This document shows, in pieces, positions 2,574 to 35,266 of a DNA stretch of 64,000 bases. This DNA is from a virus (lineage: Duplodnaviria; Caudoviricetes). The notes under the pieces are model-generated. The model saw nothing but the letters and a program-made list of their open reading frames with translations. It did not search any database and was not told the DNA's origin. Numbering within the stretch: the stretch's first letter is position 1; each line of letters begins with the position of its first letter. The DNA lies in IMG/VR virus record IMGVR_UViG_3300044620_001883, positions 136,256-200,255 of that record, one strand, 5' to 3'. A program made the position numbers and the translations under genes.

Positions 2574-5500
2574 ATGGCCGACAAGACTAGACCAGATGTA
2601 ATCGCCTTTGACCTTGATGGAACACTGGCCCTACGCCAGGAGCCCTTCAATCCGTACTCGGTAGGGGAACCCGTGGAGGCAATCTTGGACCTGGCCCTGA
2701 AGGCCATCCGGGATGGGAAGCGCACCTTGTGCTTCACGGCCCGCGCCAGTTCCAAGGATCCCAAGATGCACAGCACGGTGCGGAAGTGGCTCGATGATCA
2801 CGGGTTAGAGAAGATGAAGATCACGAACATCAAGGATCCAACGATAACCCGCTTCTACGATGACCGGGCCATCGGGGTCGTGCCAGACAAGGGCGAGCTT
2901 CTGACCAAGGTCGCGGCCGAGATGGTTCGGAAGACCAGGATGGTGGAAGTTCAGGATGACCACTGCCCACACTGTGACCACAAGTTTACCGAGAAGGGCT
3001 ACCCGCGTCCTGACTTCGAACAGGCCGAGCGGGAAGGCATTGAGCCCATGGACGCTGACCAGCTGTGTCCCAACTGCCAAGGGATCGTGGATGACCCGGA
3101 GATGTCCGACGAGAGAATTGAGAACTACCAGGGCTTCGGCGGGGAATCCATGAAGGAGATCCTGTACCAGCAGCGGGAGAAGAAGCGGGCTATCCTGGCT
3201 GCACGGCGGGCCAAGAAGGCCTCCACCTCGCCGGAGAACGTTTCCGTTCCAGGGCGAGGAGAGGAGAAGCAGGCCGCCGGGGACAAGCTCCGGAACCTGT
3301 GGGTACGTCGGGGTCAATGTCCCGAATGCGGTGGCAAGCCCAAGGACTTCGAGTTCTTCAAGACCCACTCGAACGCGGAGTGTCGTGACTGCGGTCACAG
3401 CTTCGATGTCGATGCTGAACGTAAGAAGCAGGCTTCCTGGGACCAAGCCCAAGAGAAGTCCGCCTCAGTACAGATCGCAGGCCGTACTGGCCCGCATGGA
3501 ATCCTGGAAGCCCTCAAGGCCCTGAACCTCGATGACCTCGAGAAGCAAGCCCGTGCTGACATTGCCTCCGGGAAGATCACCAAGCGTGACCGTGGGGTCA
3601 AGATGCTCAATGCCCTCGAAGGACTGCGCCGCAATGAGATCAAGCCCGAGGAGCTGATGATCAAGCGGGTGCCAGTGCTGCCACCGGCCTTCAGGCCCTT
3701 CTCGTTCCTGGGCACCACCTACATTCCCGGTGATGCCAACGAGCTCTACCAGGACCTCTTCAAGCACCGCGCCATCCATGACGAGACGCTCTCGACCCTG
3801 GGGGAAGGCGGCGCAGCCCTGACGCGCATGAATCTCCTGAATGCCACGAGGGCCCTGTACGGTTACGGAGACCCCGTGTCCCCGAAGCTCAAGGAGCGTG
3901 GACCCTCGGGCTACTTGGACCAGATCCTCAACGAAGGGCCAAAGCACTGCTACTCTGCAGACACAGAAATCCTGACGCGGGGTCAAGGGTGGGTGAAGTT
4001 CTCTGAACTGGAGCGTGGGGCGCAGGTGGCCACCATAAATCCCAAGACCCTGGCATTCGAATGGCAGACCCCTACGGAGTACATCGATTCAGAATACAGC
4101 GGTACCATGAAGCGGTTCGTAGTTGGTGGGCGTACAGGCAAGCGCATGGACCTTTTGGTCACACCCAATCACCGGATGTGGACCAAAAAGCGCGACAAGA
4201 AGAATAAGATGACGGACGACAATTTGCGCACTGGTTGGTATGCGATGCGGGCCGACGAGTTGGTCGCGCACAAAGTACGTCACTTCGCTATGGTGGGCGC
4301 AGGTGGTTGGGAGGGCTCGGTCGAACTGCCAGAGTGTGCACGCCACTGGCCCGCTGAACTGTTTGCACGTTTTATCGGTTGGTACATTTCAGAAGGAAGC
4401 ACACACGAATGTGGTACGATCGCTACAATCTGGCAGACCGAAGCAAACCCCGATTACTGCTTGGAACTAGACGCTTTGTTCCGAGACATCAGCAATGTAC
4501 AAGAGGTGTCCAAAGTGAACATGCACCGGGAGGAGCCTCGCTTCAGCGGTTACGGTTGGAGCATCAAGGGATGTAGACCGTTGGTTGCATGGTTGGAACA
4601 GCATTGCGGCAAAGGTTCCAATTTCAAGCGCATACCTGCTCTAGCACGTGATTGGAATCAGACCCTGTTGGGGTTGCTGTTCGACACCTACCTGAAGGGG
4701 GATGGCGCTAAGCGCGTTCCATGGCAGAAGCGTGCAAACGCGTCCGACAACTACCGGTTCCGTGATGCTCTTACAGATTCACATCATGCTTTCATTACCA
4801 CAAGTCCAAAGCTGTTCGATGACCTGATGGAAGTAGGCTTCAAACTTGGTATTTGTATCCGCCGTAGAAAAGAGCACCCGCATCTGTATCCAGAGCACCA
4901 TGCTGAGAAGTACAATGGTGTGCTCATTGGGCGCTGGTTCGTTCAAACCGAGTCGAACGGGACAGTTCAGGATGTGCAGTACAACGGTCACATTTATTGT
5001 GTCGCTGTACCTAACGGGCTGCTTGTGGTGCGCCGCAACGGTGCCGCCGTCGTCAGTGGTAACTCCTTCGTTCAACGCCGGCTCCTTTCCAAGCCCATCG
5101 ACAACGTGGGCCGCAGTGTCATCACGGTCGATCCAGACCTGGGCCTCGATGAAGTCTCGATCCCCCGTGAGATGGCCTGGACGCTCGCCGGTTCCAAGGT
5201 ACAGCGGCGGCTGGCCATGATGGGCATGAGTCCCGCCCAGACCATCAAAGCCGTGAAGGACCGTGACGCCTTTGCCAGCCGCACCCTGGAGCTTGAGCTG
5301 AAGGACACACCCTTCATCCTTTCCCGCGCTCCAGCCTGGCACAAGTTCAACGCCGTCGGGCAGTATGCCCGGATCCACGACGGTCCGCACATTGCCATCA
5401 ACCCCTATATCACGGCCGGTCAGAACGCCGACTTCGACGGGGACCAGATCAACGTCTCCCTGCCGGTCCTGCCAGAATCCATCAAGGAGACCAAGGAGAA

Positions 5501-5705
5501 GTTGATGGCCAGCAAGATGCTGTTCTCCATCAAGAACCAGGACGACGTGGTCCCGGTGCCTAAGCATGAGCAAATTTTAGGCATCTGGAATGCCAACAAA
5601 CGTCCGCCTACGAAGCTGCACAGCTTCGCTTCAGGACAGGAAGCGCTTGCGGGTATGCAGAGCGGCGCTGTAAAGTTGGAGGACGACATTGAAATTCCGG
5701 ACTAG
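2574..5705 (+). CDS. Phage multi-subunit RNA polymerase beta'-like subunit (catalytic middle part), N-terminally fused to a HAD phosphatase and two Zn-ribbons; intein-containing
   Basis: IAFDLDGTL and FYDDRA (HAD motifs I and IV); CPHC/CPNC and CPEC/CRDC; VPVLPPAFRP, DANELYQDL, LLSKPIDNVGRSVIT, LSRAPAWHK, catalytic NADFDGDQ at 5424-5447, VPKHEQILGIW. Confidence 0.93.
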   Translation: MADKTRPDVIAFDLDGTLALRQEPFNPYSVGEPVEAILDLALKAIRDGKRTLCFTARASSKDPKMHSTVRKWLDDHGLEKMKITNIKDPTITRFYDDRAIGVVPDKGELLTKVAAEMVRKTRMVEVQDDHCPHCDHKFTEKGYPRPDFEQAEREGIEPMDADQLCPNCQGIVDDPEMSDERIENYQGFGGESMKEILYQQREKKRAILAARRAKKASTSPENVSVPGRGEEKQAAGDKLRNLWVRRGQCPECGGKPKDFEFFKTHSNAECRDCGHSFDVDAERKKQASWDQAQEKSASVQIAGRTGPHGILEALKALNLDDLEKQARADIASGKITKRDRGVKMLNALEGLRRNEIKPEELMIKRVPVLPPAFRPFSFLGTTYIPGDANELYQDLFKHRAIHDETLSTLGEGGAALTRMNLLNATRALYGYGDPVSPKLKERGPSGYLDQILNEGPKHCYSADTEILTRGQGWVKFSELERGAQVATINPKTLAFEWQTPTEYIDSEYSGTMKRFVVGGRTGKRMDLLVTPNHRMWTKKRDKKNKMTDDNLRTGWYAMRADELVAHKVRHFAMVGAGGWEGSVELPECARHWPAELFARFIGWYISEGSTHECGTIATIWQTEANPDYCLELDALFRDISNVQEVSKVNMHREEPRFSGYGWSIKGCRPLVAWLEQHCGKGSNFKRIPALARDWNQTLLGLLFDTYLKGDGAKRVPWQKRANASDNYRFRDALTDSHHAFITTSPKLFDDLMEVGFKLGICIRRRKEHPHLYPEHHAEKYNGVLIGRWFVQTESNGTVQDVQYNGHIYCVAVPNGLLVVRRNGAAVVSGNSFVQRRLLSKPIDNVGRSVITVDPDLGLDEVSIPREMAWTLAGSKVQRRLAMMGMSPAQTIKAVKDRDAFASRTLELELKDTPFILSRAPAWHKFNAVGQYARIHDGPHIAINPYITAGQNADFDGDQINVSLPVLPESIKETKEKLMASKMLFSIKNQDDVVPVPKHEQILGIWNANKRPPTKLHSFASGQEALAGMQSGAVKLEDDIEIPD
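3948..5063 (+). mobile_element. Intein with LAGLIDADG-type homing endonuclease (372 aa) in the RNAP beta' middle subunit
   Basis: Starts CYSADTEILT and ends VVRRNGAAVVSGN before Ser+1; FIGWYISEGS and LFDTYLKGDG motifs; removal gives GPKH-SFVQRRLLSK; codon usage is more A/T-ending than the exteins. Confidence 0.92.
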
Positions 5706-5714: not shown

Positions 5715-7715
5715 ATGACCTTTTTACCACGTACATTACTGAAGCTTGCCACTGTCGACAACACGGCAAGCTATGATCCGGCTAAGGGAATGCCAAGTCC
5801 TGTGGTGACACCAGGCACGGATGATCCCAATGAGATCGTCACAAGACTGCCCGCTCCTGCGCCGACGACAACGACAACCACCACGCCAACTACCACCGCA
5901 ACCACCACGCCAACCACCACGCCAACTACCACCGCACCAAACAACGGTGCTCCCACTTCGGCTCCGGTTGGCAACGCCGCTTTTGCAGGTAATGCTGGCA
6001 CACGTCCCAACGTCTCCACTTGGGAGCCGGGCAACGGAGGTCTGGCAGTTCCGGTTGGCGACCCTGCGGATTTCAAGGCCATGTCGCGACCAGATCTCGC
6101 GAATTTTTACAAAGGCTGGGGTGGGCGGGCCTACACGGACCGTGCGCCAGGAACAGTGGGCACACCAGTTCAGCAAATGGGCAGTGCGGATCTGTACAGC
6201 CCGACACCAGGGAATCCTGGAGGGACACATGTCAGCGCCACTATTGATCCAGAGAGTTCCCTTCGTAAAGGTGGGGATCCCAACAAGCGTGTCCTGAACT
6301 CCCAGTACGGAACTGGGAGTGTGACATTCAACAATCCCTCAAACTGGGCCACGGCCCCAGACCGCAAGACCGTCATTGATGGTAAGACCTACACAGGCCC
6401 CAATGCCTTCCGTGACCATCTGGAACCGATCGTGGCGAAGCAGCAGGAGGCGGCCAAGACACAAGCTGTCGCGGAGGTCGACAAGGCCAACCCTGGGTAC
6501 TTGTTCAAAGGACCTGCAATGGCAGACCCACGTGGACCGGCCTATCCGGATGTGCCAAACCTGCGTAACCAAACCATGGCGGGTTCCCGTATTGGAGATT
6601 CGCCTTATCAGTCCCTCACGGATCCAGATCGCGTGAACCCCGCGATCGGCATCTCGGAAGGACGCCAACAGTACATCAATGATCTTGGTTCTTTGAACCT
6701 ACCCGCGCGTGTGCCTGCTCCACAGCAGTTGTTGGCTGGAGGCAAACCTGGAGGCAAACCTGGAGGCCAGCCCGCCGCAGAGCCCTATACGTCAATGCCT
6801 GTGAATCCGCAGTTCAAGGTTCCTAGTACCTTTGATCCATCTCGGAATACATTTATTTCATCAAACAGGCCAGGTAGTTATGATCCAGCATTAGCGGCGA
6901 TGCGGGAAGGCGACCCGTTTGGTGCGAACGTCCATGGACAGCCTTCGCATTCAGGGAGAAAGCTGACAGGATTTGAATCAGACGCGGCGGCCACCAAGGA
7001 CTGGGCAGCGAATCCAGTAGAGCCGAAGCTTCTGAAGAAACAGAGTAATACTGTTTCTCCTTTGGATGATCCGAATTCCTTGCTTAACCTGGACACGTCG
7101 GGACCGCTGATTCGGGAGCTTCCGGCCAAGCCTGCATCACCAGTAGCTGCGGCCAAGCCTGCATCACCCCCAGCCGTTGTCACTCCAAAGCCTGCTGCTC
7201 CAGCAACACCGAAGGTAGATGATTCACTCGGATGGGAAGCCGCTACGCCGCCCCCAAATGCTTCAGCTCCCAAGCTAAAACCAAGTGACAGCGGTACACT
7301 CGGTTGGGAGTCTGGCCCTATGCCTCCCACACAAGGACAGCAGGATGCGGCGAACATATTGAGGAACCAAGGTAACACGGAATTCCGTCTCCTCAACAAC
7401 TGGCCAGGGAGTGATTGGGATCACCTGAAGAAGCAATTCCCAGAAGTGAAACCTGAGCAGTACAGGACAACAAATGCGCTCATTGATGCTTATCGAGCAG
7501 TCCTGCCGCCAGTCAAATCTGGTGCCCTCCACTTCGCGCTCCAGTGTTCCAAGTTCGCCAGTGCGATCATGCACACCCCCACCGGCCTTGAACCTCAGGG
7601 TGGGCTCGCAAAGCCGAAGATCAAGATGCCAATTGGCCCGGGGCGTCCGCAGGTCGCATTCGAGCACGCCGCCCCCGCCAAGCCCTCCATAACCCCTCTC
7701 ACTCCTGCCTCATGA
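5715..7715 (+). CDS. Large low-complexity Pro/Thr/Ala-rich protein, probably virion-internal
   Basis: 666 aa; poly-Thr, GGKPGGKPGG and AKPASP repeats; LKLAT near the N-terminus, SKFAS near the C-terminus. Confidence 0.75.
   Translation: MTFLPRTLLKLATVDNTASYDPAKGMPSPVVTPGTDDPNEIVTRLPAPAPTTTTTTTPTTTATTTPTTTPTTTAPNNGAPTSAPVGNAAFAGNAGTRPNVSTWEPGNGGLAVPVGDPADFKAMSRPDLANFYKGWGGRAYTDRAPGTVGTPVQQMGSADLYSPTPGNPGGTHVSATIDPESSLRKGGDPNKRVLNSQYGTGSVTFNNPSNWATAPDRKTVIDGKTYTGPNAFRDHLEPIVAKQQEAAKTQAVAEVDKANPGYLFKGPAMADPRGPAYPDVPNLRNQTMAGSRIGDSPYQSLTDPDRVNPAIGISEGRQQYINDLGSLNLPARVPAPQQLLAGGKPGGKPGGQPAAEPYTSMPVNPQFKVPSTFDPSRNTFISSNRPGSYDPALAAMREGDPFGANVHGQPSHSGRKLTGFESDAAATKDWAANPVEPKLLKKQSNTVSPLDDPNSLLNLDTSGPLIRELPAKPASPVAAAKPASPPAVVTPKPAAPATPKVDDSLGWEAATPPPNASAPKLKPSDSGTLGWESGPMPPTQGQQDAANILRNQGNTEFRLLNNWPGSDWDHLKKQFPEVKPEQYRTTNALIDAYRAVLPPVKSGALHFALQCSKFASAIMHTPTGLEPQGGLAKPKIKMPIGPGRPQVAFEHAAPAKPSITPLTPAS
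5865..5936 (+). repeat. Imperfect in-frame tandem repeat (accaccacgcca-like units) encoding TTTP/TTTA
   Basis: Visible directly in the sequence. Confidence 0.85.
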
Positions 7716-23588: not shown

Positions 23589-26579
23589 ATGCGCGTCAAA
23601 GCCATCCAGTATGCGGTCAATTCGGTGCTACCTCCAGAGCTGCGCGACTATCAACGCCCTCTGGACGGTAAAGGGATCGAGCGTCTGATGCACCAGGTGG
23701 CGGTAAGCTACCCGGACAAATATGCGGAGGTGCTCCGTCACATCGGTGACCTGGGACGCAACGCCGCGTACTGGCAAGGTGAGACCATGGGACTCGATGA
23801 TCTGCGCGACGTCATCGACACGCCCGGCTATTTGCGCCAGATGGACACGGAGGTCGACGCAGCCACACGAGGCCTCAAGGATCCGCAGGCGATCCGGGAA
23901 GCCCGGGAGGGTGTCTGGCATAAATGGGCGTCCAAGCTGGAGCGCGACACCATGACGGCCGCGCTGGTGAAGAACAACGCGATCGGTGAATCTGTGGCAT
24001 CCGGAGCACGCGGCAAGCCTGTGCAGGCCCGCGCTATGCTTTCCACGCCGGCGATCTTCGAAGACAGCCAGGGTCGCACCATCCCGCTCTTCGCCCGCAG
24101 TTCTTACTCCCAGGGTGTGTCTCCTGGTGCCTGGCTTGCTGGGACCTACGGCGCCCGCAAGGCAGTCGTGAGTACAAAGGTCTCGACTGCCAAAGGTGGG
24201 TTCTTGGCGAAAATGCTCACACAGGTTGCTGCTCCTCTGATCGTGACTGAGCCAGACTGCGGAACCACCAACGGCATCGATCTTTCCAAAGACGCGCCCG
24301 ACCTGCGCAACCGCTTCCTGGCCGCCCCTGCCGGTGGGCTTGACGGTGGGTCTCTTCTGGACCGCAAGGGCATCGCGCAGATCAAAAACAAGTTCAAGGG
24401 CGACACCATCCTGGTGCGATCTGCTCTGACCTGCCAGGCCCCTCGTGGTGTTTGCGCCAAGTGTATCGGGGCAGACCCGCGCGGACAGCTCCACCGTGTT
24501 GGCTACGCCGCAGGGATCACAGCCTCGAACGCGCTCGGAGAACCTGCTTGTTTGCATGGTAGCACCCTGGTGCGCATGGCAGATGGAAGTGTCAGACCGA
24601 TCACCGCTATCCGAGTTGGTGACATGGTGCTAGGCGCGGATATACAAGGGGTGCTGCGTCCAACAAGGGTCATGAATACGTTCGTGAACGGTATGCGTCA
24701 CTGCTTTAGAACGGTTGTGCGTAAGGGCTTCGGTGCCAAGTCTGATCGTATCGAGTTAATTTCCACAGCAGAACATAAAGTTCTAAGCTTCAAAGGCAAA
24801 CGTCACAAGAAGGCGTATCCAACTATCGCAAGCATAGAAATGCCAGCAGAAGTAAACCCCCAACACAGCGTGTACATGGCAGCGGGTTGCCCTGATTTCG
24901 TAGGCGTTGTCGAGCCGTGGGCCATGCTGCTCGGGGCACTTACAGGTGACGGTTGTTACACCGGAGGAAAAGGCTCTGATGGCAAAGGCATCGGTTTTTC
25001 CTGCTACGATCAGCTTCTCACTGAAGACATGCAGAGAGCGCTACATGCACACGGATTGAAGCTGAGCGGCAGCGAAGCAAGCGAGTTTCGTGTAAACATG
25101 CAAGACCAATATAGCGCGTTCGAATACATCGATGGTAAATTAGTACGTAACAAGCTGCGTGCGGTGCTTATCAAAGAAGGTATGTGGGGGCAGTACAGTG
25201 GTGAAAAAACACCTCCAAGAAACATTCAGAGGTGGGACAACGCATCCGTAGCAGCTTACATCGGTGGGTTGCTGGCCACAGATGGGTGGATCACCACAAC
25301 CGGAAGTGTTGCTGGGTTTAGCAGCAACTCCCAGCTGCTGCTGCAGACTGTCAAGGACCTGTGTGAGCTGCGTTTTGGTATCTACGGATCGCGCATAATC
25401 CCGAAGTACAAAAGAAAGAAAGGGACCCAACAGTTTTACGCACCAACGTTTGAGTTCACGATCTGCGGCGCAGAGAACATGCGAAAGTTGTTCGCGCATA
25501 TACCTGTGCCAGGTTGCAAACAAGCAAGGCTGCAAAAGAAAGCACAGGAACCAACTAAAACACGCATGTGCGCGGGGCGTTTCACCGTGCTTGAGCAAGT
25601 GTACTACGGGTTTGAGATGACTTACGACATTGAGGTGGACAACGACACCCACCTCTTTGCGCTCGCCAATGGTCTGGTTGTTTCAAACACACAGGCGGCC
25701 CTGCGGGAAAAGCACACATCAGGCGCAGCGTCTAAGAAGGCCTCGTACTCGGGGTTGGATTGGCTGCAGCGGTTCGTGCAGGTGCCAGACAGTTTCCCAG
25801 ATCGCGCCCCCGTGGCTGAGCAAGATGGGACCGTGACGGTCATGGAGGCCCCGCAAGGTGGTCACTATGTACACATCGGAGATCAGGAGCATTACGTACC
25901 GGCCAACCTGGAAGTAACCGTCAAGACAGGCGAGCGTGTTGAAGCCGGGCAACCTCTGTCGGAAGGGGTCGTGCGCCCTGATGACGTGGTGCGGTTGCGT
26001 GGCGTTGGGGAAGGTCGCCGATACTACAGCGACCGCCTTGGGCAGATGTTTGCCGACTCAGGCTTCCGCGCGGACCCGCGCAACGTCGAGCTGATTGCGC
26101 GTGCGGCGGTCGATCATGTGCAGATCGACGATCCTGAGGATCTGCCAGACGGTGTGCTCCCTGACGACACAGTACAGTTCGGGGAGTTCATGCGCAATTA
26201 CGAGCCCGCCGAGGGATCCCAAATACGGGATATCAAGGAGGCCGCCGGCCAGTACCTACAGCAGCCCGCCCTCCACTACACACCCGGCACCAAACTCACA
26301 GGCAGCATGGTCGAGCGTCTAGGCAAGGCTGGCATCTCGAAGATCATGACCAACGAGAAAGCGCCGCCTTTCCACCCCGCAATGGTGCGCCTTCAAACGT
26401 CCTCGTTTTCAAATCCGGATTGGCTGGCCAGCTTGTCGACCTCTTACCTCGGCAAACAGCTCGCCACGGGAGCGGCGCGCGGGCAGGACACCAACATCGA
26501 ACACAACATCCACTTTGCACCCCGGCTTGCTGTGGGTGTAGACTTTGGCAAGAACATCGAAACCACCGGAGAATTTTGA
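23589..26579 (+). CDS. Phage RNA polymerase beta'-like subunit, C-terminal part (bridge helix, Zn site, trigger loop); intein-containing
   Basis: SGARGK; GTYGARKAVVSTKVSTAKGGFLAKML (bridge helix); EPDCGT; RSALTC..PRGVCAKC; ALGEPA/TQAALREKHTSG (trigger loop); region-H-like C-terminus. Confidence 0.92.
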   Translation: MRVKAIQYAVNSVLPPELRDYQRPLDGKGIERLMHQVAVSYPDKYAEVLRHIGDLGRNAAYWQGETMGLDDLRDVIDTPGYLRQMDTEVDAATRGLKDPQAIREAREGVWHKWASKLERDTMTAALVKNNAIGESVASGARGKPVQARAMLSTPAIFEDSQGRTIPLFARSSYSQGVSPGAWLAGTYGARKAVVSTKVSTAKGGFLAKMLTQVAAPLIVTEPDCGTTNGIDLSKDAPDLRNRFLAAPAGGLDGGSLLDRKGIAQIKNKFKGDTILVRSALTCQAPRGVCAKCIGADPRGQLHRVGYAAGITASNALGEPACLHGSTLVRMADGSVRPITAIRVGDMVLGADIQGVLRPTRVMNTFVNGMRHCFRTVVRKGFGAKSDRIELISTAEHKVLSFKGKRHKKAYPTIASIEMPAEVNPQHSVYMAAGCPDFVGVVEPWAMLLGALTGDGCYTGGKGSDGKGIGFSCYDQLLTEDMQRALHAHGLKLSGSEASEFRVNMQDQYSAFEYIDGKLVRNKLRAVLIKEGMWGQYSGEKTPPRNIQRWDNASVAAYIGGLLATDGWITTTGSVAGFSSNSQLLLQTVKDLCELRFGIYGSRIIPKYKRKKGTQQFYAPTFEFTICGAENMRKLFAHIPVPGCKQARLQKKAQEPTKTRMCAGRFTVLEQVYYGFEMTYDIEVDNDTHLFALANGLVVSNTQAALREKHTSGAASKKASYSGLDWLQRFVQVPDSFPDRAPVAEQDGTVTVMEAPQGGHYVHIGDQEHYVPANLEVTVKTGERVEAGQPLSEGVVRPDDVVRLRGVGEGRRYYSDRLGQMFADSGFRADPRNVELIARAAVDHVQIDDPEDLPDGVLPDDTVQFGEFMRNYEPAEGSQIRDIKEAAGQYLQQPALHYTPGTKLTGSMVERLGKAGISKIMTNEKAPPFHPAMVRLQTSSFSNPDWLASLSTSYLGKQLATGAARGQDTNIEHNIHFAPRLAVGVDFGKNIETTGEF
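24549..25688 (+). mobile_element. Intein with LAGLIDADG homing endonuclease (380 aa) at GEPA|TQ of the trigger-loop region
   Basis: Starts CLHGSTLVRMADG and ends TYDIEVDNDTHLFALANGLVVSN before Thr+1; MLLGALTGDG and YIGGLLATDG. Confidence 0.93.
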
Positions 26580-26587: not shown

Positions 26588-27364
26588 ATGCTCACCCCAT
26601 CCAGAACCGCCAAAGAGTACGAGGAGATGCTGGACTTCGCGGAGCGGACCCAACAGGTCAAGCAGGCGCTGAACCCCCTTGCTCCCTTGAAGGCGCTCGG
26701 TAACGCTGTCTCACGTGGGGTTCAAAAGATCCCATTTATCGGGAAGCCTGCGGTCGCCTCCACTCCCTATCAGTTTGGTTACGGCGTGCCTGGTGCGGAA
26801 GTCGCCAGCGCCGCAGGCCAAGCCGCCACAGGACTCTTCAAGTGGGCACCCGCCGCGGGACGGCTCGCCACTGCTCCCATGCGCTGGGCGGCCAACAATC
26901 CACTGACGACCGTTATAGGAGGCGGAGCGTTGGCTCAAATCAACAGTACAGCTGACGACCTTCGGAACCGCATCGGTTCCTTTGCGGACGGTGTCTCGCA
27001 CGGTGCCGCCGGTACGCTCCATGGTTTCGCCAACGCCCCGTTCGCTCAACGCTTGTCCGGCGCGTTGTTCCCGCAGGCGGCAATGAACAGCGAGAGCATG
27101 GGAGAGGCCATCAAGGCCCACACGGCCAAGCAGATGCAACAACAGTCCGCACCGGTGCGCATGATGCTCGGGGACACAATGGCACCGAGCATCATGGACA
27201 AGCTGCGGTTGATGCAGGCCGGGCAGAGTCCTGATTTGTCCCCGCGTGTCCGCGAACTTCTCCCGTTGGCAGGGGAGGCCCGCTTGCGAGGCATGCAGGA
27301 CCTGTGGAAGAAGATCGAGGACTACACGACGCAGGGCACCAATGCCACTACCGCTGGTACTTGA
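26588..27364 (+). CDS. Hypothetical virion-associated protein, Ala/Gly-rich amphipathic
   Basis: VKQAL motif; TTVIGGGALAQ; lies between RNAP and head genes. Confidence 0.7.
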   Translation: MLTPSRTAKEYEEMLDFAERTQQVKQALNPLAPLKALGNAVSRGVQKIPFIGKPAVASTPYQFGYGVPGAEVASAAGQAATGLFKWAPAAGRLATAPMRWAANNPLTTVIGGGALAQINSTADDLRNRIGSFADGVSHGAAGTLHGFANAPFAQRLSGALFPQAAMNSESMGEAIKAHTAKQMQQQSAPVRMMLGDTMAPSIMDKLRLMQAGQSPDLSPRVRELLPLAGEARLRGMQDLWKKIEDYTTQGTNATTAGT

Positions 27365-27377
27365 GCAGTACAGGCGC

Positions 27378-27406
27378 TTGCACGAATCGAAAGTCGCCCG
27401 CATGTT
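27378..27406 (+). promoter_or_regulatory. Putative promoter TTGCAC-N17-CATGTT
   Basis: Fits the window-wide pattern; implies the start is ATG 27420 rather than 27402. Confidence 0.5.
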
Positions 27407-27419
27407 TAACGTCAACAGC

Positions 27420-29744
27420 ATGCACCCCTCCATTTTATCCACGCTTTCCAAAGTTGCAGCCACGCAAACACCCGACGACAAGCAGGTCGAGCAGGCGTTC
27501 GCCGAACAGGCCTACATGATGTGTTCCAACAAGGCGGGGGTGCTCATGAAAGACCCCTACCGGATCGGGTTTGAGATCATCACCAAGAATGATGACAACA
27601 CCAAGCTGCTTGGTACATGGGGCTACCGCCTCGGTCGCAACTCCGCCGACCAGCTTCTGCATGCGCCATGCGCGTTCATCAACGGGCGCATTCTCATGAC
27701 GGATCTTCTCTACCGCGCAGGCCCGAAGAAGTTCGTGGTCCATTGCCCGGACTGGGGCCAATACCTGGTGGACATGGAAGCCCAGGAGTACGGAAGGGCC
27801 CAAGACAAGTCCGACACAGCCAAGCTGCACAACAACTTCCGGGCCGAGCGCTTCCTTCGCACACCGGCAGCTTTCGGGAAAATTGCTTCTGAAGACCTTC
27901 CTGCAGACTGGCAGACGCTGGTCAGCGACTGGTGTCGTCAGGTCAAAGTGGGTGGAGTGCTGCGTGACTTCATGGTCCACGTGGGACGTGACACCGCGCT
28001 CGACACCCTGATGAGCTGGATGGACAAGTCCGCCAAATTTGAGCGCGCCGTGGGACTGCACCTGCCGACAGACACCTGGATGCCGGCCGAAATGTTGCAT
28101 GACACCAAAGAGGCTGCTGCAAAAGACAACGTGGTGCTGCGCTACTTCAGCGGCGCGCCGACAGAGGAGATGCTCAAGCAGGCGAGCCATCCGGAAAAGG
28201 TCGCGGCCGAGCTGTACCAACGTGGCTGGTCCATGGACGCCCCGGAGAACATCGACCCACCTGAACACTTCACCGTCGTGTATGATGGCGGACCGCCTGT
28301 ACTGCGCAACCCCACCGGGCCTGGCGTCTGCATGCTCATCACCGCTGGTGGTGAAAAGGTCGAAGTCGTGGTCGGTACTGCCCTGTCGGGGTGGGACCTG
28401 ACTTCAGATTCGTCCTCGAATGTCGGCGGTTACAACCCACCATCTCTCACTGCTTATGGGGACGACCGTCCCGCCCGCCCGCGCATGACGGTTCTGAACA
28501 TCAGCAATTCGCAGGATGTCGGGACACTCTACGAAGGCAACGCGTCGCTCTGGAGCGAACCTCAGGACACCGGCACGCTGGACGAAGCCGGCACACCGGT
28601 GGAGGACATCACTGCTGACAACCTGTATTGTCTTCTGGATCCGGTGAACGGGGAGCTGACCGAGCCTGTGTACGTCATGGACAAACGCAAAGTCGGCGCA
28701 GTCTGGCACGTCACGGTGGCCCGCCATTCCGGCGGAACCGGCGGGTTGTTGGTCATCAATCCGGATGCCGCCAAACCACGGCTTCGCAATGTCATCAACA
28801 GCAAGTGGCGCGCCTTCAAGGTCCCTCACGAAAACTACACACGTGCCAGACCAGCAGGCGGTCTTACGTCGGACACCAACAAGTACGCCCCAGAGTGGAA
28901 TGTGAAACCGTTGGTGCCCGCGAGTGAGCAAGACGTCACAGCCAGCATGCTGGAGATGCCGGGCGTCAAGGAAGCTTCACTCTCACACGAGACAGAGGCC
29001 GGACAGGATCTGTACACATTGCGGGTCGGACACCGCTCGACACTGCTGCTGCGCGAACGCCCTATGGCGCTGAAGCTGGCGTGCGAGCTGTGTGTCCACC
29101 CTGACGCGATTCAGGCGATGCTCAAGCAGGCACGCACGCAGGGCACTGCCCGATTCCGCCTGGAACTGCCTACCAAGCTGGCCGGGGCTATGTTGCGCAT
29201 CGTCGACTCTCCGCGTTTTGAGCAGTCCTTCGACAATGTGCACCAGGTGCCGGTTGAGCGTGACCAGGCAGCAGTGCTTCGCACCGAACGCACACCGATC
29301 TTTGTCCCCAATGCGCGCATCGGTGACAAACAGGACTCCACACGAGGCGTGCGAAACCAGGAGGACAACTCCATGGAATCCAAGCATCGTGTCCCGCCTG
29401 AAATGATCATGACGGCCAGCCCGGATGAACTGGCACAGTTTGCGGAATCGCACAATCTTCCACACGTGTTCGACCACGGCGTGATGGCCAGCCTGGCCAA
29501 GACCTACGACTCACAGCTGTTCCTGGACCAGTATCTGGTGAAGCTCGAGGACGGACTCGACGCGATGGCGCGCTGTCTGTTCTTGTACTACTGGAAGCCG
29601 CAGGACTGGAAACAGCTCTACGGGGCCGACGACCTGCAGGAACTGGAGGACCAGATGCTCAGCTCCTTCAAGAGTCTTGGTGATTTGCTGCTTGCATTGC
29701 TCAAGAAATCGCGGACCAGCAACAACGCACCGCGTTTGTCGTGA
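27420..29744 (+). CDS. Large head/internal virion protein, unknown function
   Basis: About 775 aa with about ten K-x-A motifs (SKVAA, GKIAS, TKEAA, LKQAS, EKVAA, VKEAS...). Confidence 0.7.
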   Translation: MHPSILSTLSKVAATQTPDDKQVEQAFAEQAYMMCSNKAGVLMKDPYRIGFEIITKNDDNTKLLGTWGYRLGRNSADQLLHAPCAFINGRILMTDLLYRAGPKKFVVHCPDWGQYLVDMEAQEYGRAQDKSDTAKLHNNFRAERFLRTPAAFGKIASEDLPADWQTLVSDWCRQVKVGGVLRDFMVHVGRDTALDTLMSWMDKSAKFERAVGLHLPTDTWMPAEMLHDTKEAAAKDNVVLRYFSGAPTEEMLKQASHPEKVAAELYQRGWSMDAPENIDPPEHFTVVYDGGPPVLRNPTGPGVCMLITAGGEKVEVVVGTALSGWDLTSDSSSNVGGYNPPSLTAYGDDRPARPRMTVLNISNSQDVGTLYEGNASLWSEPQDTGTLDEAGTPVEDITADNLYCLLDPVNGELTEPVYVMDKRKVGAVWHVTVARHSGGTGGLLVINPDAAKPRLRNVINSKWRAFKVPHENYTRARPAGGLTSDTNKYAPEWNVKPLVPASEQDVTASMLEMPGVKEASLSHETEAGQDLYTLRVGHRSTLLLRERPMALKLACELCVHPDAIQAMLKQARTQGTARFRLELPTKLAGAMLRIVDSPRFEQSFDNVHQVPVERDQAAVLRTERTPIFVPNARIGDKQDSTRGVRNQEDNSMESKHRVPPEMIMTASPDELAQFAESHNLPHVFDHGVMASLAKTYDSQLFLDQYLVKLEDGLDAMARCLFLYYWKPQDWKQLYGADDLQELEDQMLSSFKSLGDLLLALLKKSRTSNNAPRLS

Positions 29745-30631
29745 CCGCTGAAACCATTGCCATCCTTGCAGGCTCTCTCCCGGACCATGTGATCCGGGAC
29801 AGCGGCTTTGGGGGTCGTGTGGAGTTTGAGCCGACCTGGGGCTATAACGCCGACGTGCAGCGTTTCATCTCTGCCTACCGGGATATGGATTTCGGGTGGC
29901 GGTATGTGCGGGCGCTGGTGTCCAACAAACTGCCGTTCCTGGGCGCACCACTACACGGAGACGACGAGGTTCTGTTTCGTGCTTACCTGTTCTGCCGGGA
30001 TCCGAAGCGGTACAAGTCTCCGGACATCGAGCTCGCGCTGGCGCTGGCCATGGGGCAGATGACGTCAAGCCGCGCCACTGTGGAAGGTTTACTGCTCTCG
30101 GCTGATTCGAGCTTGAAGGTTGTGGCCAAAACCACTGGCATGCCGGTGGAGGCCATTCAGGCCTTCGAGCGCCTGTTCTTCAACGTGGTGGACCGACGGG
30201 AGGACACCATGTACTTGCAGTCCATCGTGTACCCACACGGGCGCATGGTCGAGCTGGTGGAAGGTTACCTGGAGAACACCAGCTTGTGCGATTTGATCCG
30301 AAGGGCTGGGTACAACAATGGCGCAGCGGATGTCCTGTACTTGATGGGAGCCTCCAGCAGCGCGCTGGACGCCATAGCGCAGGCGTCGTCACCCAAGCAA
30401 TTGGAAAGTCTCATGATGGCCTATGGGTACATGCTGGCACGAAACGGCGGCATGAACCAGGCACGCGGCGCGGGTCTCAACAACGCCAAGGCGCTCCTGA
30501 CTGCGGGCAAGCTTGGCGGCGAAACTATTGATGACACGCCTATGGAGGCGAACATGAGTACCGTGCTGAAGAACGAGATGATGCGCTGGGCGCAACCAGC
30601 TGTGCGGTTGGTCGAGGGCGAAAGCAACTGA
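29741..30631 (+). CDS. Hypothetical protein with a possible HTH
   Basis: SSLKVVAKTTGMPVEAIQAFERLFF looks HTH-like. Confidence 0.65.
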   Translation: MTAETIAILAGSLPDHVIRDSGFGGRVEFEPTWGYNADVQRFISAYRDMDFGWRYVRALVSNKLPFLGAPLHGDDEVLFRAYLFCRDPKRYKSPDIELALALAMGQMTSSRATVEGLLLSADSSLKVVAKTTGMPVEAIQAFERLFFNVVDRREDTMYLQSIVYPHGRMVELVEGYLENTSLCDLIRRAGYNNGAADVLYLMGASSSALDAIAQASSPKQLESLMMAYGYMLARNGGMNQARGAGLNNAKALLTAGKLGGETIDDTPMEANMSTVLKNEMMRWAQPAVRLVEGESN

Positions 30632-30650
30632 GGAGCCGGAGCAAAAACGG

Positions 30651-30679
30651 TTGCGTGTGTGTCGTCACGACAGCATCGT
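30651..30679 (+). promoter_or_regulatory. Putative promoter TTGCGT-N17-CATCGT; near-leaderless to ATG 30687
   Basis: Pattern match and spacing to the ATG. Confidence 0.5.
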
Positions 30680-30686
30680 TTGCAGC

Positions 30687-32222
30687 ATGCACGCTAGGCA
30701 GATCGAATCCGCACTCAAAACTGTCATCGCACGTCTCAAATCCAAAGAGGCGGCGCGGTCACAAACAACCATGGAGAACGTACTGATCGAGTACGGCGAT
30801 GAAAACAACCTGGCACCTGCGCAGTTGGAGAAGCTGGCGCAAACGCTCAATCTGACGCTTACCCTGTCCCACGCCAAGCAGGCCAATCCGGATGGGCGCG
30901 GGGACACGTTCGACATTGTCTCCACCCCGCAGCTGCTCTCCCGGTTCATGGATCCTGAGCGCAAACCTGAGAAGTCCGCAGCCGACAAAGGCCTGCCGGA
31001 GGACGGCTGGACCGCCAAGCTCCACAAAGCGCGGGCGAAGGATTTCAAGGCACCGGCCAATGGTCTGGTGGATATCCCAGACAAGGGAAAGCTCCCAACG
31101 ATGAAAGTGGCTTCGGCACAGTGTGAGGAGCTGCCAAGCTGGCAGGGATTCACAGTGGGAGATCACTTCAAGGACACTCCCCGCAGCGCTCCGCGTTGGG
31201 CGACCATCGACAAAGTCATGGACAACCCCCAACAGACCAGTGGTTGGCACAAGGAGGCCTCCGCTGCTTTACGCGCACCGACAGTCAATGCGGCTGTCCT
31301 GAGTGAGATGGCCGACACGGCCTGGGTGAACATGCGCAACGGCTTGAACAAGCTGGCTGCGTTGATGCGGCACAATGTCGGCATCTACCCTGAAATCATC
31401 CAGGATATCCGGGCCTGCAACGTGAAGGGCGCGGCCGTGGTGTCGCTGTTCGACCGGCATCTGGATGCGCTCGTGCTCCCACGCAGCCCGGTGCCACCTG
31501 ACACTCGTGACTTCTACCGTGACAGGCACAAGGTGGCCGCAATCGTTGACGCTATCCTTGACGCCCATGAGGAGCGCCAGGCGTGCCTCGCCGTGCGGGA
31601 GGACATCTTGCGCGCCAAGGAAGCGGGCACTGCGACAGAGACACGCCCTGACACTTCTGTAAAAAAAAAGGAGCGACGTGCTGATATCCCAGACCCCAAC
31701 AGTTACTTTCCAGACCGCGTCGTAGCTGAAAACACCACCCCGCAGGCCCTGCGGGATGCTCTGTTTAGCGCCAGTTCCCTTGGACAAGGCGTGGCGGGAG
31801 CGGGTGCCTCAGCGGCCCAAGGGCTAGCATCTCAGACGTCCAACGTACTGCCCACCGCGACAGATCAAGCCCAGCGCATGTCCGACGGCTACGCGACATT
31901 GTTCGGAGACTCGCACTCGAAACAGTACAACCGGCTGGCCACCAAGATGGAAGCCTGGCAGCAAGGTGCGGTTTTGCAGCGCCTTCTTATGACTGACGAG
32001 GTGCTGTCCAAAATGGACCCGTCGCAGGTTATCGGCGCCTTTCAAACGCTGCGTGCCAACAGCCCGCGCGTGGCGCGCGACATCAACGTGAGCCGCACGC
32101 TTTTGCGCGAGGCTCTTCAACACCAGGGTGTTCCGCTGCAGCAGATCAAGACGCTTCGGGACGTCGAGGGTAAAACCCGACCAGACCCAACCGTCGAGTC
32201 CAATTCCAAAGAACGTTCATGA
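30687..32222 (+). CDS. Head/internal virion protein, unknown function
   Basis: About ten K-x-A motifs (SKEAA, EKSAA, MKVAS, HKEAS, NKLAA, HKVAA, AKEAG). Confidence 0.7.
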   Translation: MHARQIESALKTVIARLKSKEAARSQTTMENVLIEYGDENNLAPAQLEKLAQTLNLTLTLSHAKQANPDGRGDTFDIVSTPQLLSRFMDPERKPEKSAADKGLPEDGWTAKLHKARAKDFKAPANGLVDIPDKGKLPTMKVASAQCEELPSWQGFTVGDHFKDTPRSAPRWATIDKVMDNPQQTSGWHKEASAALRAPTVNAAVLSEMADTAWVNMRNGLNKLAALMRHNVGIYPEIIQDIRACNVKGAAVVSLFDRHLDALVLPRSPVPPDTRDFYRDRHKVAAIVDAILDAHEERQACLAVREDILRAKEAGTATETRPDTSVKKKERRADIPDPNSYFPDRVVAENTTPQALRDALFSASSLGQGVAGAGASAAQGLASQTSNVLPTATDQAQRMSDGYATLFGDSHSKQYNRLATKMEAWQQGAVLQRLLMTDEVLSKMDPSQVIGAFQTLRANSPRVARDINVSRTLLREALQHQGVPLQQIKTLRDVEGKTRPDPTVESNSKERS

Positions 32223-32599
32223 TCATCATCCGCCACACCATTGAATTGCTAGGTCGTAACTGGATCTGTACGTTCCAGTTAGATCCGGCCGCCGCCAATC
32301 CCATCTCCCCACTCCAGCAGGAAAAACTGCGGCAGTTCGGACAGATGCAAGTCGCCCGCGGTGGTACAGTGACACCCGCAACAGGCGACCCTGTCGTTCT
32401 GGCCGAGGCTGACGTTTACCTTCCCGGGGACTTTCCATTCAAGCAGGTCTTCAGCCTGGATGATTATGACAACGCGGCGAGTCTGGTTACAGCCTGGAAG
32501 ACCTTGATGTTGTCTCGTATCCAGGCGGCAAATCTGACCTTCATGGCAAACACGGCAGCACCTGTCGAGGGCTCCACCACCATCACTGACGATGCATAA
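32219..32599 (+). CDS. Hypothetical structural protein
   Basis: 126 aa, coupled within the head operon. Confidence 0.7.
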   Translation: MIIIRHTIELLGRNWICTFQLDPAAANPISPLQQEKLRQFGQMQVARGGTVTPATGDPVVLAEADVYLPGDFPFKQVFSLDDYDNAASLVTAWKTLMLSRIQAANLTFMANTAAPVEGSTTITDDA

Positions 32600-33728
32600 C
32601 AAAACAGCCAATTGGTTGGACGATATTAAGGCACAGCTTGAAAGCGTCAAACGGCACGCCGCCGCCAGCCCGTACGCGAAAGGTTCTCTCATCGGCGGCG
32701 CCGCCGGTGCTGCGCTTGCTGGTGGTGCCAGCTGGCAGAACAGCGAAGATGGTGACACTCCGGCGTTGCGTCGTCGGCGTATCCTGCGGGATGCCTTGAT
32801 GGGTGGTGTGCTCGGCGCTGGTGCAGGCGCGGCTCTGCCGGCCTTTGGTGACATAGCAAAGCAGCTCGCACCCCCACCAACAGCCGAACAGTCCACCGCG
32901 GCCCGTATTGCCAACATTTTCGCAGATGACAAACCTCTAGGTGGGCTGACAGGCACAACCTTGGGTGGGGTGGGAGGCTTCACAGCCGAACGTTATTTCC
33001 GACGGGGCAATGTGCTGGACAAAGTACACTCCCATTTGAATGGTGTTCTTAACGGTGCGCATGGTGTGTACAAGGACATCACCAAAGCGGTTGCCGATGA
33101 GATGAATCATTTGAAGGGTACAGCCATTGGCGGACAACCGCATTGGAACAATGCCTTCGATGAACTCATTCACAAGAGAATGGAAGCCCTGAATCTCGAC
33201 AAAAGCGTGTTGGCGCCGAACGTCTGGAGTCAAAGATGGAAAGAACAAGTCAAGGATTGGGAAACGGAGGCGCGTAAGACGCATTTGAAGCGTTACGACC
33301 CCACGCTTGCCACGTTCACGGAAGACTTCGGGCGGACGCCTGTGGCAAATGGAATATCAAAACATCAAGGCGCGTTGTTTGGTGGATTTGGTCCTCAAGG
33401 TTTCTTGGGGCGCTGGTTTTCACGGGCTACCAGCCCAGGAGGAGCGTCAGCAGATCAATTGGGGCTAAGGTTGCTTCGCGAAAAAAACTTCACAGCAGCC
33501 CAGGCAGCGGCAGAGCTCGAAAAAATCATGCACGACCCTGCCAAGCATCCCGACTTCACCCGTAACATGGCCAAAACGTACAGCGGACGCGGAATCCACA
33601 CGGGTATCACAGGCCGGTCGATCGGCGCAACGGCGCTTGGCGCGGCGCTACCCTCCATCATCCCGTACGCCATCCCAGCTGTCGCGGCGGCCAAGGGCCT
33701 CCTTAAAAGCACGGTCAGCGACCAATAA
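32592..33728 (+). CDS. Glycine-zipper-containing protein (candidate ejection/membrane-channel protein)
   Basis: LIGGAAGAALAGG, LMGGVLGAGAGAAL, LGGLTGTTLGGVGG, IGATALGAAL; N-terminal NKTAN. Confidence 0.55.
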   Translation: MHNKTANWLDDIKAQLESVKRHAAASPYAKGSLIGGAAGAALAGGASWQNSEDGDTPALRRRRILRDALMGGVLGAGAGAALPAFGDIAKQLAPPPTAEQSTAARIANIFADDKPLGGLTGTTLGGVGGFTAERYFRRGNVLDKVHSHLNGVLNGAHGVYKDITKAVADEMNHLKGTAIGGQPHWNNAFDELIHKRMEALNLDKSVLAPNVWSQRWKEQVKDWETEARKTHLKRYDPTLATFTEDFGRTPVANGISKHQGALFGGFGPQGFLGRWFSRATSPGGASADQLGLRLLREKNFTAAQAAAELEKIMHDPAKHPDFTRNMAKTYSGRGIHTGITGRSIGATALGAALPSIIPYAIPAVAAAKGLLKSTVSDQ

Positions 33729-33738
33729 CACACCAACC

Positions 33739-35235: not shown

Positions 35236-35237
35236 GT

Positions 35238-35266
35238 TTGACACACTAGTACAGCGCTTCGATCAT
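35238..35266 (+). promoter_or_regulatory. Putative promoter TTGACA-N17-GATCAT for the scaffold-capsid operon
   Basis: Perfect -35 immediately after the protease stop. Confidence 0.6.

Follow-up and report, generated by a model that had tools for sequence, protein, structure and literature searches.

A phage RNA polymerase β′ subunit preceded by swappable passenger modules with K-x-A borders, a probable virion-bound precursor

In an uncultured lake phage with a 200-kb genome, the N-terminal half of the only RNA polymerase (RNAP) β′ subunit has three passengers ahead of it, namely a HAD phosphatase of the capless type, a zinc ribbon bearing a basic helix (ZnR1), and a small zinc ribbon (ZnR2). 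The protein is probably a virion-bound precursor of the "polyvalent protein" type, whose cleavage at K-x-A motifs we infer from their position and conservation at the borders of the modules. The features discussed here are listed below by their positions in the analysed window, a stretch of 64,000 nucleotides; P0004 is the closest relative and P0015 a further homologue.

2574–5705, plus strand: whole precursor gene with the HAD module, ZnR1, ZnR2 and the N-terminal half of β′ (β′N) with an intein (frame; Pfam and PHROGs domains; 71 homologues).
2574–2915, plus strand: capless HAD phosphatase module, residues 1–114, with the C-terminal end K112-V-A114 (alignment, AlphaFold2, Foldseek).
2907–2915, plus strand: site 1, K112-V-A114 followed by A115, at the end of a homology block with P0004; K and A reach at least 90% conservation at the N-terminal edge of 42 ZnR1 modules.
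2916–3221, plus strand: ZnR1 (C131, H133, C134, C165, C168) with the long basic helix 190–217, residues 115–216 (invariant positions of the ZnR1 alignment; AlphaFold2).
3213–3221, plus strand: site 2, K214-K-A216 followed by S217, at the start of the second homology block with P0004.
3267–3275, plus strand: site 3, K232-Q-A234 followed by A235, in a linker (pLDDT below 50 for residues 222–236).
3276–3434, plus strand: ZnR2 (C249, C252, C270, C273), residues 235–287, whose C-terminal end is site 4, K285-Q-A287 followed by S288.
3456–3464, plus strand: site 5, K295-S-A297 followed by S298, the predicted N-terminus of mature β′N, at the start of the conserved core (K-x-A in 34 of 39 boundary windows).
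3465–3947, plus strand: β′N extein 1, residues 298–458, the TGP...VLPPAFRP region (BLAST to homologues; weak Pfam Rpb1_1 match).
3948–5078, plus strand: intein, residues 459–835 (Pfam Hint and PHROG intein-type matches; absent in P0015 and P0004).
5079–5702, plus strand: β′N extein 2, residues 836–1043, with the catalytic NADFDGD at 951–957 (Pfam Rpb1_2, 62.3 bits).
23589–26579, plus strand: second half of β′ (Rpb1_5, hybrid domain) with its own LAGLIDADG intein.
35290–36459, plus strand: acidic scaffold-like protein with 11 K-x-A motifs.
37602–38576, plus strand: probable major capsid protein, K33-L-A35 followed by S36 (Atlas 0.98 to phage major capsid clusters; fixed alignment column).

The precursor is encoded by a single continuous plus-strand frame of 1043 codons plus the stop, with no internal stop, and the domains found in it bear out the order of HAD, zinc ribbon, zinc ribbon and β′ proposed in a preliminary description. 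The two CxxC...CxxC modules named there are present (Cys131/134/165/168 and Cys249/252/270/273; the original numbering was right to within one residue), as are all of the separators, TKVAA (111–115), AKKAS (213–217), EKQAA (231–235), KKQAS (284–288) and EKSAS (294–298). The HAD domain, placed at residues ~1–115, is indeed complete: its four catalytic motifs, D13-L-D15-G-T17 (I), T55 (II), K87 (III) and D96-D97 (IV), are present and conserved, and its Rossmann-like fold is modelled by AlphaFold2 with high confidence (pLDDT 96–98 for residues 10–110). Across the 143 sequences of alignment A2, D13, D15, G31, R57 and K87 never vary; conservation is at least 90% at T17, T55, D96 and D97.

The Foldseek matches of the HAD model are capless HAD phosphatases, namely 2obb (E 4e-4) and the T4 Pnkp 3′-phosphatase 2ia5, 5uj0 and 1ltq (probability about 1.0), and the profile built from A2 matches 1xpj. 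In addition, the module matches PHROG 415 "polynucleotide kinase" (E 4e-6), and tblastn returns weak matches to T4-like pseT genes. Its Pfam HAD_PNKP score of 13.7 bits is below the gathering cut-off of 27.6 (the best relative reaches 27.4), and the module is therefore placed in the HAD superfamily as a relative of the PNKP phosphatase, outside PF25109. The predicted phosphatase most likely removes 3′-phosphates from nucleic-acid ends, as in RNA end healing, or acts on nucleotides. Among its 1697 library matches are stand-alone proteins of 106–150 aa, whose C-terminal ends carry no K-x-A. Across the wider HAD family K-x-A is only modestly enriched, on the C side in 28 of 99 (11% by chance) and on the N side in 36 of 69 (21% by chance), so the module evidently lives also in phages without the K-x-A code. 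In relatives, it co-occurs with 2H, LigD phosphoesterase and ligase modules.

For the zinc modules, a first alignment (A1) mixed fragments of three modules and misaligned the zinc modules (10–20% identity versus 40–60% by BLAST); it was replaced by A2, which holds co-linear sequences plus HAD fragments, and by A3, which holds ZnR1 alone. ZnR1 is modelled with a mean pLDDT of 80.5, and the comparison of its fold with the PDB gave no significant match, the TFIIE, TFIIB and Rpb9 zinc-ribbon rows being too weak (E >0.4) to count as evidence. K-x-A stands at the start of 44 of the 46 ZnR1 modules and after the basic helix in 35 of them. ZnR2 is found before ZnR1 in some relatives and is missing from others, and because of this shifting position or loss we regard it as a passenger. 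The native N-terminal zinc-binding domain of bacterial β′ has no Cys to represent it in the core (residues 298–458); ZnR2 was considered for this part and ruled out, since it moves or is missing in relatives and the homologues without an extension do not have it.

The β′ assignment rests on the double-psi β-barrel with its NADFDGD and on a Pfam Rpb1_2 score well above the cut-off of 25.3 bits, the sole Rpb1_2 match in the genome, in which only one RNAP set was found. The intein (C459–N835, 377 aa) carries Cys1, TPNH at 530–533, LAGLIDADG-type motifs, a C-terminal Asn and Ser at the +1 position (S836), and homologues that lack it read GPK[FH] followed directly by SF at the insertion point, where P0015 and P0004 read straight through. 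Given that P0004 is 92–95% identical and has no intein, the intein is, judged by sequence comparison, optional. The proposal that this gene would need both splicing and proteolysis is reasonable.

The preliminary description had asked whether homologous β′ genes carry the same N-terminal passengers, and our comparison reveals that they carry different, modular and swappable ones. Among about 70 homologues (71), the start of the β′ core ranges from residue 1 to residue 1096, and 13 start at residues 1–20 with no extension, a few residues ahead of TGP. The passengers of the relatives are non-homologous to one another and comprise HAD, InPase (strong Pfam matches, E 1e-44 to 1e-47), NUDIX, 2H/Acb1-like, GNAT and LysM plus lysozyme modules, a C-terminal LigD phosphoesterase with a ligase OB domain, or β itself with K-x-A↓S at the β/β′ joint; moreover, the order of the modules is shuffled. 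In P0004, ZnR1 is replaced by an unrelated 174-aa cassette, and the breakpoints of this swap fall exactly at K112–A114 and K214–A216. A lysozyme makes sense as ejected cargo and not as part of a polymerase. Upstream of one relative without an extension, no HAD or other passenger gene is visible in the 6 kb examined.

The borders of the modules are marked by five K-x-A-[A/S] sites (ending at residues 114, 216, 234, 287 and 297), and five K-x-A-[ASGT] motifs in the first 300 residues were reached by 4 of 20,000 composition-preserving shuffles. Just before the core, K-x-A occurs in 34 of 39 non-redundant homologues versus 5.7 expected (binomial P 8e-24, kinship ignored). No other gapped motif is as strongly enriched in the 18 residues preceding the core; the P1′ residue is usually Ser or Ala, and the flanks show no conservation. 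In the AlphaFold2 model, sites 114, 216 and 234 fall either on the margins of modules with confident models or within a low-confidence linker, and the K-x-A motifs that are followed by a large residue (204, 324 and 719) lie inside modules. The conserved core begins at the last site, K295-S-A297↓S298, and the short forms have their natural N-termini within a few residues of this point; a cut here would yield the N-terminus that is natural to the homologues without an extension. Counting against cleavage, sites 285 and 295 are located within a predicted helix that runs on into the core.

The same motif recurs in head proteins. In the capsid-protein family, K-x-A-[S/A] occupies one alignment column, at position 27–39, in 33 of 33 members. 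A second gene of the genome has an InPase module bordered by K-x-A, the motif is enriched in a subset of the genome's proteins, and the precursor gene shares its strand with the K-x-A-bearing neighbours and head genes among which it lies. Both in the capsid protein and at the N-terminal border of ZnR1, K-x-A keeps a fixed register and so could belong to the structure of these domains.

A head protease was sought in several ways. Pfam S77, S78, ClpP, S21 and S49 have no match anywhere in the genome, and Pfam, PHROGs, Atlas (two candidates) and PDB sequence searches (three ORFs) of the head-gene region named no protease. Pfam and PHROGs likewise fail to recognize the capsid candidate and the other ORFs of the head module; as a rule, the head genes have diverged too far for the libraries searched. 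Pfam and PHROGs detect no embedded peptidase domain in the precursor itself. Herpesvirus assemblin, whose fold is common to phage prohead proteases, cleaves at (V/L/I)-x-A↓S. The sites described here resemble, and do no more than resemble, those of assemblin in the Ala at P1, the Ser at P1′ and the setting of capsid maturation, and they differ in having Lys instead of V/L/I at P3. The genome has no detectable assemblin-like gene, a search that was also silent in 14 of 14 control genomes (prokaryotic, none expected).

We propose that the precursor would join the other RNAP subunits and then be taken into the prohead, where a head-maturation protease would cut after the Ala of K-x-A↓[A/S/G] at residues 114, 216, 234, 287 and 297. 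The predicted products are a 12.8-kDa phosphatase, zinc modules of 11.9 kDa and 6.1 kDa, and β′N from S298, which after intein splicing would comprise 369 aa; all of them would be ejected together with the DNA. The gene had originally been read as encoding either a polyprotein cut by a protease, with the RNAP packaged, or a polymerase into which a phosphatase is built. Although no protease was found, the comparative evidence clearly favours the former, through the swappable passengers, the K-x-A in 34 of 39 homologues, the motif in the capsid and scaffold-like proteins, and the virions of the cultured phage Arash described below. The two readings are compatible: precursor that is freshly synthesized and still uncut may also be active in the cell along with its phosphatase, and in view of the single RNAP set such an uncut cytoplasmic form probably exists too.

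The strongest rival, although unlikely, is that the extension stays attached throughout, so that the phosphatase and zinc ribbons serve the polymerase and K-x-A is a linker or recognition motif. Exemplary roles would be the clearing of 3′-phosphates or phosphorylated products, or assistance in promoter or nucleic-acid binding. The fully conserved catalytic residues indicate that the HAD enzyme is used, many passengers of the relatives are phosphohydrolases with nucleotides, PPi or RNA ends as substrates and could aid transcription (see the InPase discussion in PMC5512222), and with one RNAP set the cytoplasmic polymerase would carry the extension. Furthermore, the SPN3US homologue of a processed virion RNAP (vRNAP) β subunit functions uncut, with its long N-terminal region attached (PMC5694885), which also counts against cleavage. 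Yet the 13 homologues without an extension show that it is not needed for polymerase function, and LysM-lysozyme and GNAT passengers, a shuffled order and a recent cassette swap fit badly with permanent accessory domains. A motif that is confined to the borders, has unconserved flanks and is common to the capsid and scaffold-like proteins is likewise hard to explain as a linker.

Still less probable is a disposable propeptide, in which the 297-residue extension only loads or chaperones β′N into the prohead and is then cut and degraded or expelled, its passengers having no later role. Models of this kind are the capsid-targeting sequences of T4 and the phiKZ-type propeptides. The head-protein propeptides of 201phi2-1 and phiKZ, which carry several cut motifs, are cleared from the head (PMC5694885, PMC10052503), and the basic helix of ZnR1 could, judged from composition, bind the acidic scaffold-like protein. 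Against this, the invariant HAD catalytic residues and the stand-alone gene versions of the module argue for an enzymatic function, the passengers of the relatives are bona fide enzymes by Pfam, as the InPase E values attest, and in cultured phages InPase modules are found within proteins that bear internal head, minor head or portal annotations. An artefact (mis-assembly, a missed stop, a frameshift or wrongly merged genes), the possibility against which the preliminary description had itself warned, is hardly credible, because the frame is continuous and the same fusion recurs in dozens of independent assemblies of different sources, and its variant, an internal start for β′, is ruled out by the boundary codon V299, which is GTA and no start codon, with Ser, Ala or Gly and never Met following the boundary in homologues.

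Returning to the virion-bound precursor, a wider reading for the whole clade of large uncultured phages falls somewhat short of even odds. According to it, β′ of the virion-packaged multisubunit RNAP would be a carrier rack of swappable cassettes bounded by K-x-A↓S, a protease code that head maturation would use too; the cassettes would be taken up with the polymerase and set free within the capsid. The cassettes listed for it are 3′-phosphatase, pyrophosphatase, NUDIX, 2H phosphodiesterase, ligase, acetyltransferase and lysozyme, with RNA repair or anti-defence as their purpose. If so, with the code at the β/β′ joints, fusing the genes and cleaving the product would come to the same as splitting the genes, so that the fused and split RNAP genes of relatives could give the same mature subunits; and, given the single RNAP set, the enzyme may exist in a second, uncut version in the cytoplasm. 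Enzymes would be loaded into capsids by hitch-hiking on the polymerase, and, provided that the cuts are real, K-x-A plus a small residue would be a readable code that predicts mature virion proteins across a large group of uncultured phages. The passengers (end-healing phosphatase, cyclic phosphodiesterase, 3′-phosphoesterase with ligase, pyrophosphatase, NUDIX and lysozyme) point to needs of the first seconds of infection, most likely the repair of nuclease-cut RNA or the removal of nucleotide signals.

Among known systems, the 3′-phosphatase domain of T4 Pnkp (PseT) shares the capless HAD fold and the DxDxT, T, K and DD motifs with our module, which differs in having no kinase domain, in its length of only ~105 aa and in its sub-threshold HAD_PNKP score. 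The small stand-alone HAD phosphatases of jumbo-phage RNA-repair systems have this capless fold and these motifs in common with it as well (PMC7824862).

The nearest cultured homologue of the precursor is Gp206 of Salmonella phage Arash (OQ632216), with 31% identity over the core, the gene of which adjoins the portal gene. Gp206 was the most detected protein in purified virions by mass spectrometry, and the virion preparation also yielded detections of separate pyrophosphatase, phosphohydrolase, phosphoesterase, RNA ligase and cell-wall hydrolase proteins, although the authors warn that abundant enzymes may be carry-over in the preparation (PMC10585845). In the Gp206/Gp216 system, β is fused to β′N without enzyme passengers, and the enzymes are encoded by separate genes. 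The β/β′ joint of Gp206 has no K-x-A; the code is thus not common to this distant relative.

In the phiKZ-like phages (201phi2-1, SPN3US gp245, phiKZ gp175), a subunit of a multisubunit virion RNAP likewise has a long N-terminal region. This region is cleaved off at a short consensus that capsid, portal and ejection proteins carry too, with several motif copies per propeptide and with processing that varies between relatives (PMC5694885, PMC10052503). For example, in 201phi2-1 the prohead protease removes an N-terminal propeptide of 275 aa from the vRNAP β subunit by cutting at TFE-275 (PMC5694885). By comparison, the phiKZ-like motif is [S/A/G/T]-x-E (AXE in SPN3US), while ours is K-x-A with a predicted cleavage; their propeptides are not described as enzyme cassettes in these two papers; and they have two RNAP sets, while the present genome has one.

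The polyvalent proteins, known from phages and from conjugative elements (Iyer et al. 2017, PMC5512222), resemble the precursor in joining unrelated enzymatic and binding domains on one polypeptide, in a set that varies between relatives; the prediction for them is that they are packaged, enter the cell along with the DNA and are subsequently processed into their units. Their repertoire overlaps with that found here in InPase, 2H, NUDIX, GNAT, lysozyme and a virion RNA polymerase; the words "haloacid" and "phosphatase" are both absent from the text of PMC5512222. The polymerase there is an N4-like single-subunit enzyme, whereas the carrier here is one half of a multisubunit β′. Processing of the polyvalent proteins is attributed to an MPTase peptidase domain that many but not all of them contain, whereas the precursor has no peptidase domain and its borders carry the K-x-A of the head proteins. 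If our reading is true, polyvalent injected proteins and the prohead-protease processing of virion RNAPs, which have so far been described separately, would become linked.

ORF 2574–5705 (+ strand) is a single uninterrupted frame of 1043 codons in a virus record of 200,255 bp (estimated completeness 98%; the window is bases 136,256–200,255), and nearly all long ORFs lie on the + strand. The preliminary description had read its product, P0001, as a HAD phosphatase followed by two zinc ribbons and an intein-bearing RNA polymerase β′ sequence; the gene is real and this domain reading correct.

Family matches in P0001, the product of ORF 2574–5705 (+ strand)
Residues 2–135 region: 'polynucleotide kinase' PHROGs family (E 4e-6)
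Residues 2–135 region: second HAD-type PHROGs family
Residues 7–77: HAD_PNKP (Pfam, sub-threshold)
Residues 248–281: double zinc ribbon (Pfam)
Residues 346–381: Rpb1 domain 1 (Pfam, weak match)
Residues 459–547: Hint (Pfam)
Residues 906–975: Rpb1 domain 2 (Pfam, 62 bits)

The genome contains one Rpb1_2 match and one Rpb2_6 match, indicating that it encodes a single RNAP set. P0001 holds the N-terminal half of β′ (β′N); the second half is encoded at window 23589–26579, 18 kb downstream, and carries its own LAGLIDADG intein, so that inteins interrupt both halves of the catalytic subunit. The gene that follows β′N (window 5715–7715, 666 aa) encodes a 12-residue leader ending K10-L-A12|T, then a long Thr/Pro-rich low-complexity stretch as well as three K-P-A repeats; its protein matched no family.

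We consider it rather probable that the β′N gene encodes a virion-directed precursor whose passengers, the modules joined to the β′ core, are released at K-x-A sites. The five separator pentapeptides reported earlier were all located, at residues 111–115, 213–217, 231–235, 284–288 and 294–298. P0001 has seven K-x-A copies within residues 112–326, as compared with one in the other 717 residues, which lies inside the intein. All five copies followed by Ala or Ser are at module borders, and all three that precede a large residue (204, 324 and 719) are within modules. Five K-x-A-[ASGT] in residues 1–300 were reached in only 4 of 20,000 shuffles of the same residues. The predicted model has pLDDT below 50 at residues 122–127 and 222–236; sites 285 and 295, however, fall within a predicted helix. 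At the last site, K295-S-A297|S298, alignment with the core begins exactly at S298. The main rival reading, that the extension remains attached to β′, appears unlikely to us.

The border motif recurs among homologues. A search with residues 1–458 recovered 71 proteins, in which the core (P0001 residues 298–458) starts at residue 1–20 in 13 and elsewhere anywhere up to residue 1096. With the conserved TGP motif as anchor of the alignment, short forms begin 0–31 residues before TGP, mostly fewer than 10. Nearly every long form has, 4–16 residues before TGP, a K-x-A whose next residue is Ser, Ala or Gly, with freely variable residues around it. In a scan of all gapped residue pairs, made with no prior choice in the 18-residue window before the core, K-x-A was the top motif (34 of 39 non-redundant windows, where the remainder of the extensions would predict 5.7; binomial P 8e-24, with no correction for relatedness). 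K-x-A stands at the start of 44 of 46 ZnR1 modules independently of the upstream content, and K-x-A-[ASGT] follows the basic helix in 35 of the 46.

Residues 1–330 matched 1697 proteins among 1.84 billion representatives (E ≤ 0.001). The region matching residues 8–112 occurs both as stand-alone proteins of 106–150 aa and as a module embedded at either end or in the middle of proteins of up to ~2000 aa. Stand-alone forms end a few residues past the last strand and have no motif; embedded modules often show K-x-A 2–8 residues beyond that end point. Across 143 aligned sequences, D13, D15, G31, R57 and K87 are invariant and T17, T55, D96 and D97 are at least 90% conserved, indicating that all four HAD motifs are kept. 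AlphaFold2 modeling on this alignment gave pLDDT 96–98 for residues 10–110, and the Foldseek matches are capless HAD phosphatases, namely BT_0820 (2obb), the T4 Pnkp 3′-phosphatase domain (2ia5, 5uj0, 1ltq), GmhB and phage AfhF; pseT genes of T4-like phages were matched weakly by tblastn. A jumbo-phage review describes two HAD families, one kinase-fused and one stand-alone, and gives them the task of removing linear phosphates once 2H enzymes have opened cyclic ends during RNA repair (PMC7824862).

In ZnR1 (residues 115–216), C131, H133, C134, C165 and C168 are invariant among 42 sequences, and the C-terminal end is a long basic helix; no PDB counterpart of its model (mean pLDDT 80.5) was found. 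The ZnR2 (residues 235–287) cysteines are 249, 252, 270 and 273. ZnR2 was rejected as a native β′ zinc-binding domain, because cysteines are absent from the core, no such element exists in extension-less homologues, and the ZnR2 of P0014 and P0016–P0020 precedes ZnR1, far from the core.

The preliminary description had asked whether homologous phage β′ genes carry the same passengers; family matches reveal that they differ. HAD occurs in the closest clade, and relatives carry the pyrophosphatase module InPase (E 1e-44 to 1e-47), NUDIX, 2H/Acb1-like or GNAT domains. LysM is N-terminal to β′N in P0061, where phage lysozyme is matched below threshold as well, and in P0047, where NUDIX is matched weakly. 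P0060 (1237 aa) begins with the β′N core, and its C-terminal passengers (LigD 3′-phosphoesterase, ligase OB domain and GNAT) are separated by K-x-A. The C-terminal part of β is a passenger in some relatives; P0034, P0066, P0070 and P0071 have K-x-A|S at the β/β′ joint, and their fused gene may end up as the individual subunits for which this phage has scattered genes. The nearest relative, P0004 (748 aa), is 92–95% identical to P0001 over residues 1–114 and 214–460, yet has an unrelated 174-aa Gly/Ala/Pro-rich segment in place of ZnR1 (window 2916–3221) and lacks the intein (window 3948–5078), so both presence/absence differences are recent. The swap breakpoints are exactly K112–A114 and K214–A216, indicating that the modules behave as motif-bounded cassettes. 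At the locus of P0054, an extension-less relative, a small gene at 3519–3953 of that locus (L002) with a weak Peptidase_C39 match lies between the β and β′N genes and is followed by ~1.3 kb with no called gene.

Other long HAD-bearing proteins are further β′N fusions or polyproteins without β′. Among the latter, P0076, encoded directly upstream of an RNAP β fragment gene, joins a homologue of this genome's 52,923–54,512 gene to HAD, ZnR1 and InPase. The same genome has a second polyprotein-like gene (G000:C1:130344-133049, 901 aa) 3.2–5.9 kb upstream of the window start, whose InPase module (residues 205–337, E 3e-46) has K178-D-A|S on one side and K355-Q-A|T on the other; relatives carry this module fused to β′N, or to HAD and ZnR1.

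K-x-A is concentrated genome-wide in a subset of proteins. ORF 37,602–38,576 (324 aa; Atlas feature score 0.98 to capsid clusters) is the probable major capsid protein, and all 33 members of its family, the most distant at 31% identity, share K-x-A-[S/A], usually their sole K-x-A, in an identical alignment column at position 27–39 (K33-L-A35|S36 here). An acidic scaffold-like protein at 35,290–36,459 has 11 copies. No maturation protease was named by Pfam or PHROGs among the head-gene-region ORFs (window 27,246–40,933), two Atlas and three PDB sequence queries returned no candidate, and Pfam S77, S78, ClpP, S21 and S49 had no match in the whole genome. This negative is a genuine gap in the case, though of limited weight, because none of the scanned ORFs, the capsid candidate included, matched a named virion family in Pfam or PHROGs; this clade's head module has diverged strongly.

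Among cultured phages, the closest homologue comes from Salmonella phage Arash: its Gp206 matches the core at 31% identity, and the gene for Gp206 adjoins the portal gene. With 3516 spectra, Gp206 was the top detected protein in LC-MS of Arash virions; Gp216, the remainder of β′, gave 1210. The authors caution that abundant enzymes were possibly carried over (PMC10585845). Also detected in the particles were a pyrophosphatase, phosphohydrolase, pyrophosphohydrolase, phosphoesterase, two RNA ligases and a cell-wall hydrolase (PMC10585845), a set resembling the passenger repertoire of the β′N relatives. In addition, InPase modules similar to that of this genome are annotated as 'portal', 'minor head', 'internal head' or 'DarB-like' in hundreds of cultured phages. 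On the precursor reading, P0001 would be directed to the virion and its passengers freed by cutting at K-x-A sites; since there is a single RNAP set, the cut virion form may be accompanied by an uncut one in the cytoplasm.

Related strategies are known. The prohead protease of phiKZ-like phages cuts off N-terminal propeptides at a short [S/A/G/T]-x-E-type motif; by this route 275 residues are lost from the vRNAP β subunit of 201phi2-1, whereas its SPN3US homologue works uncut (PMC5694885, PMC10052503). The SPN3US vRNAP assembles before prohead entry (PMC5694885, PMC10052503), making hitch-hiking on a subunit plausible. Polyvalent proteins combine several domains in one phage polypeptide, for which packaging, injection and processing are predicted; the processing is ascribed to an embedded MPTase, and the domains include InPase, 2H, lysozyme and an N4-like virion RNAP (PMC5512222). 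The words 'haloacid' and 'phosphatase' are absent from the text of that paper, and no multisubunit β′ carrier appears in the part of the account consulted. The proposed precursor arrangement is a variation on known kinds and not a new category.
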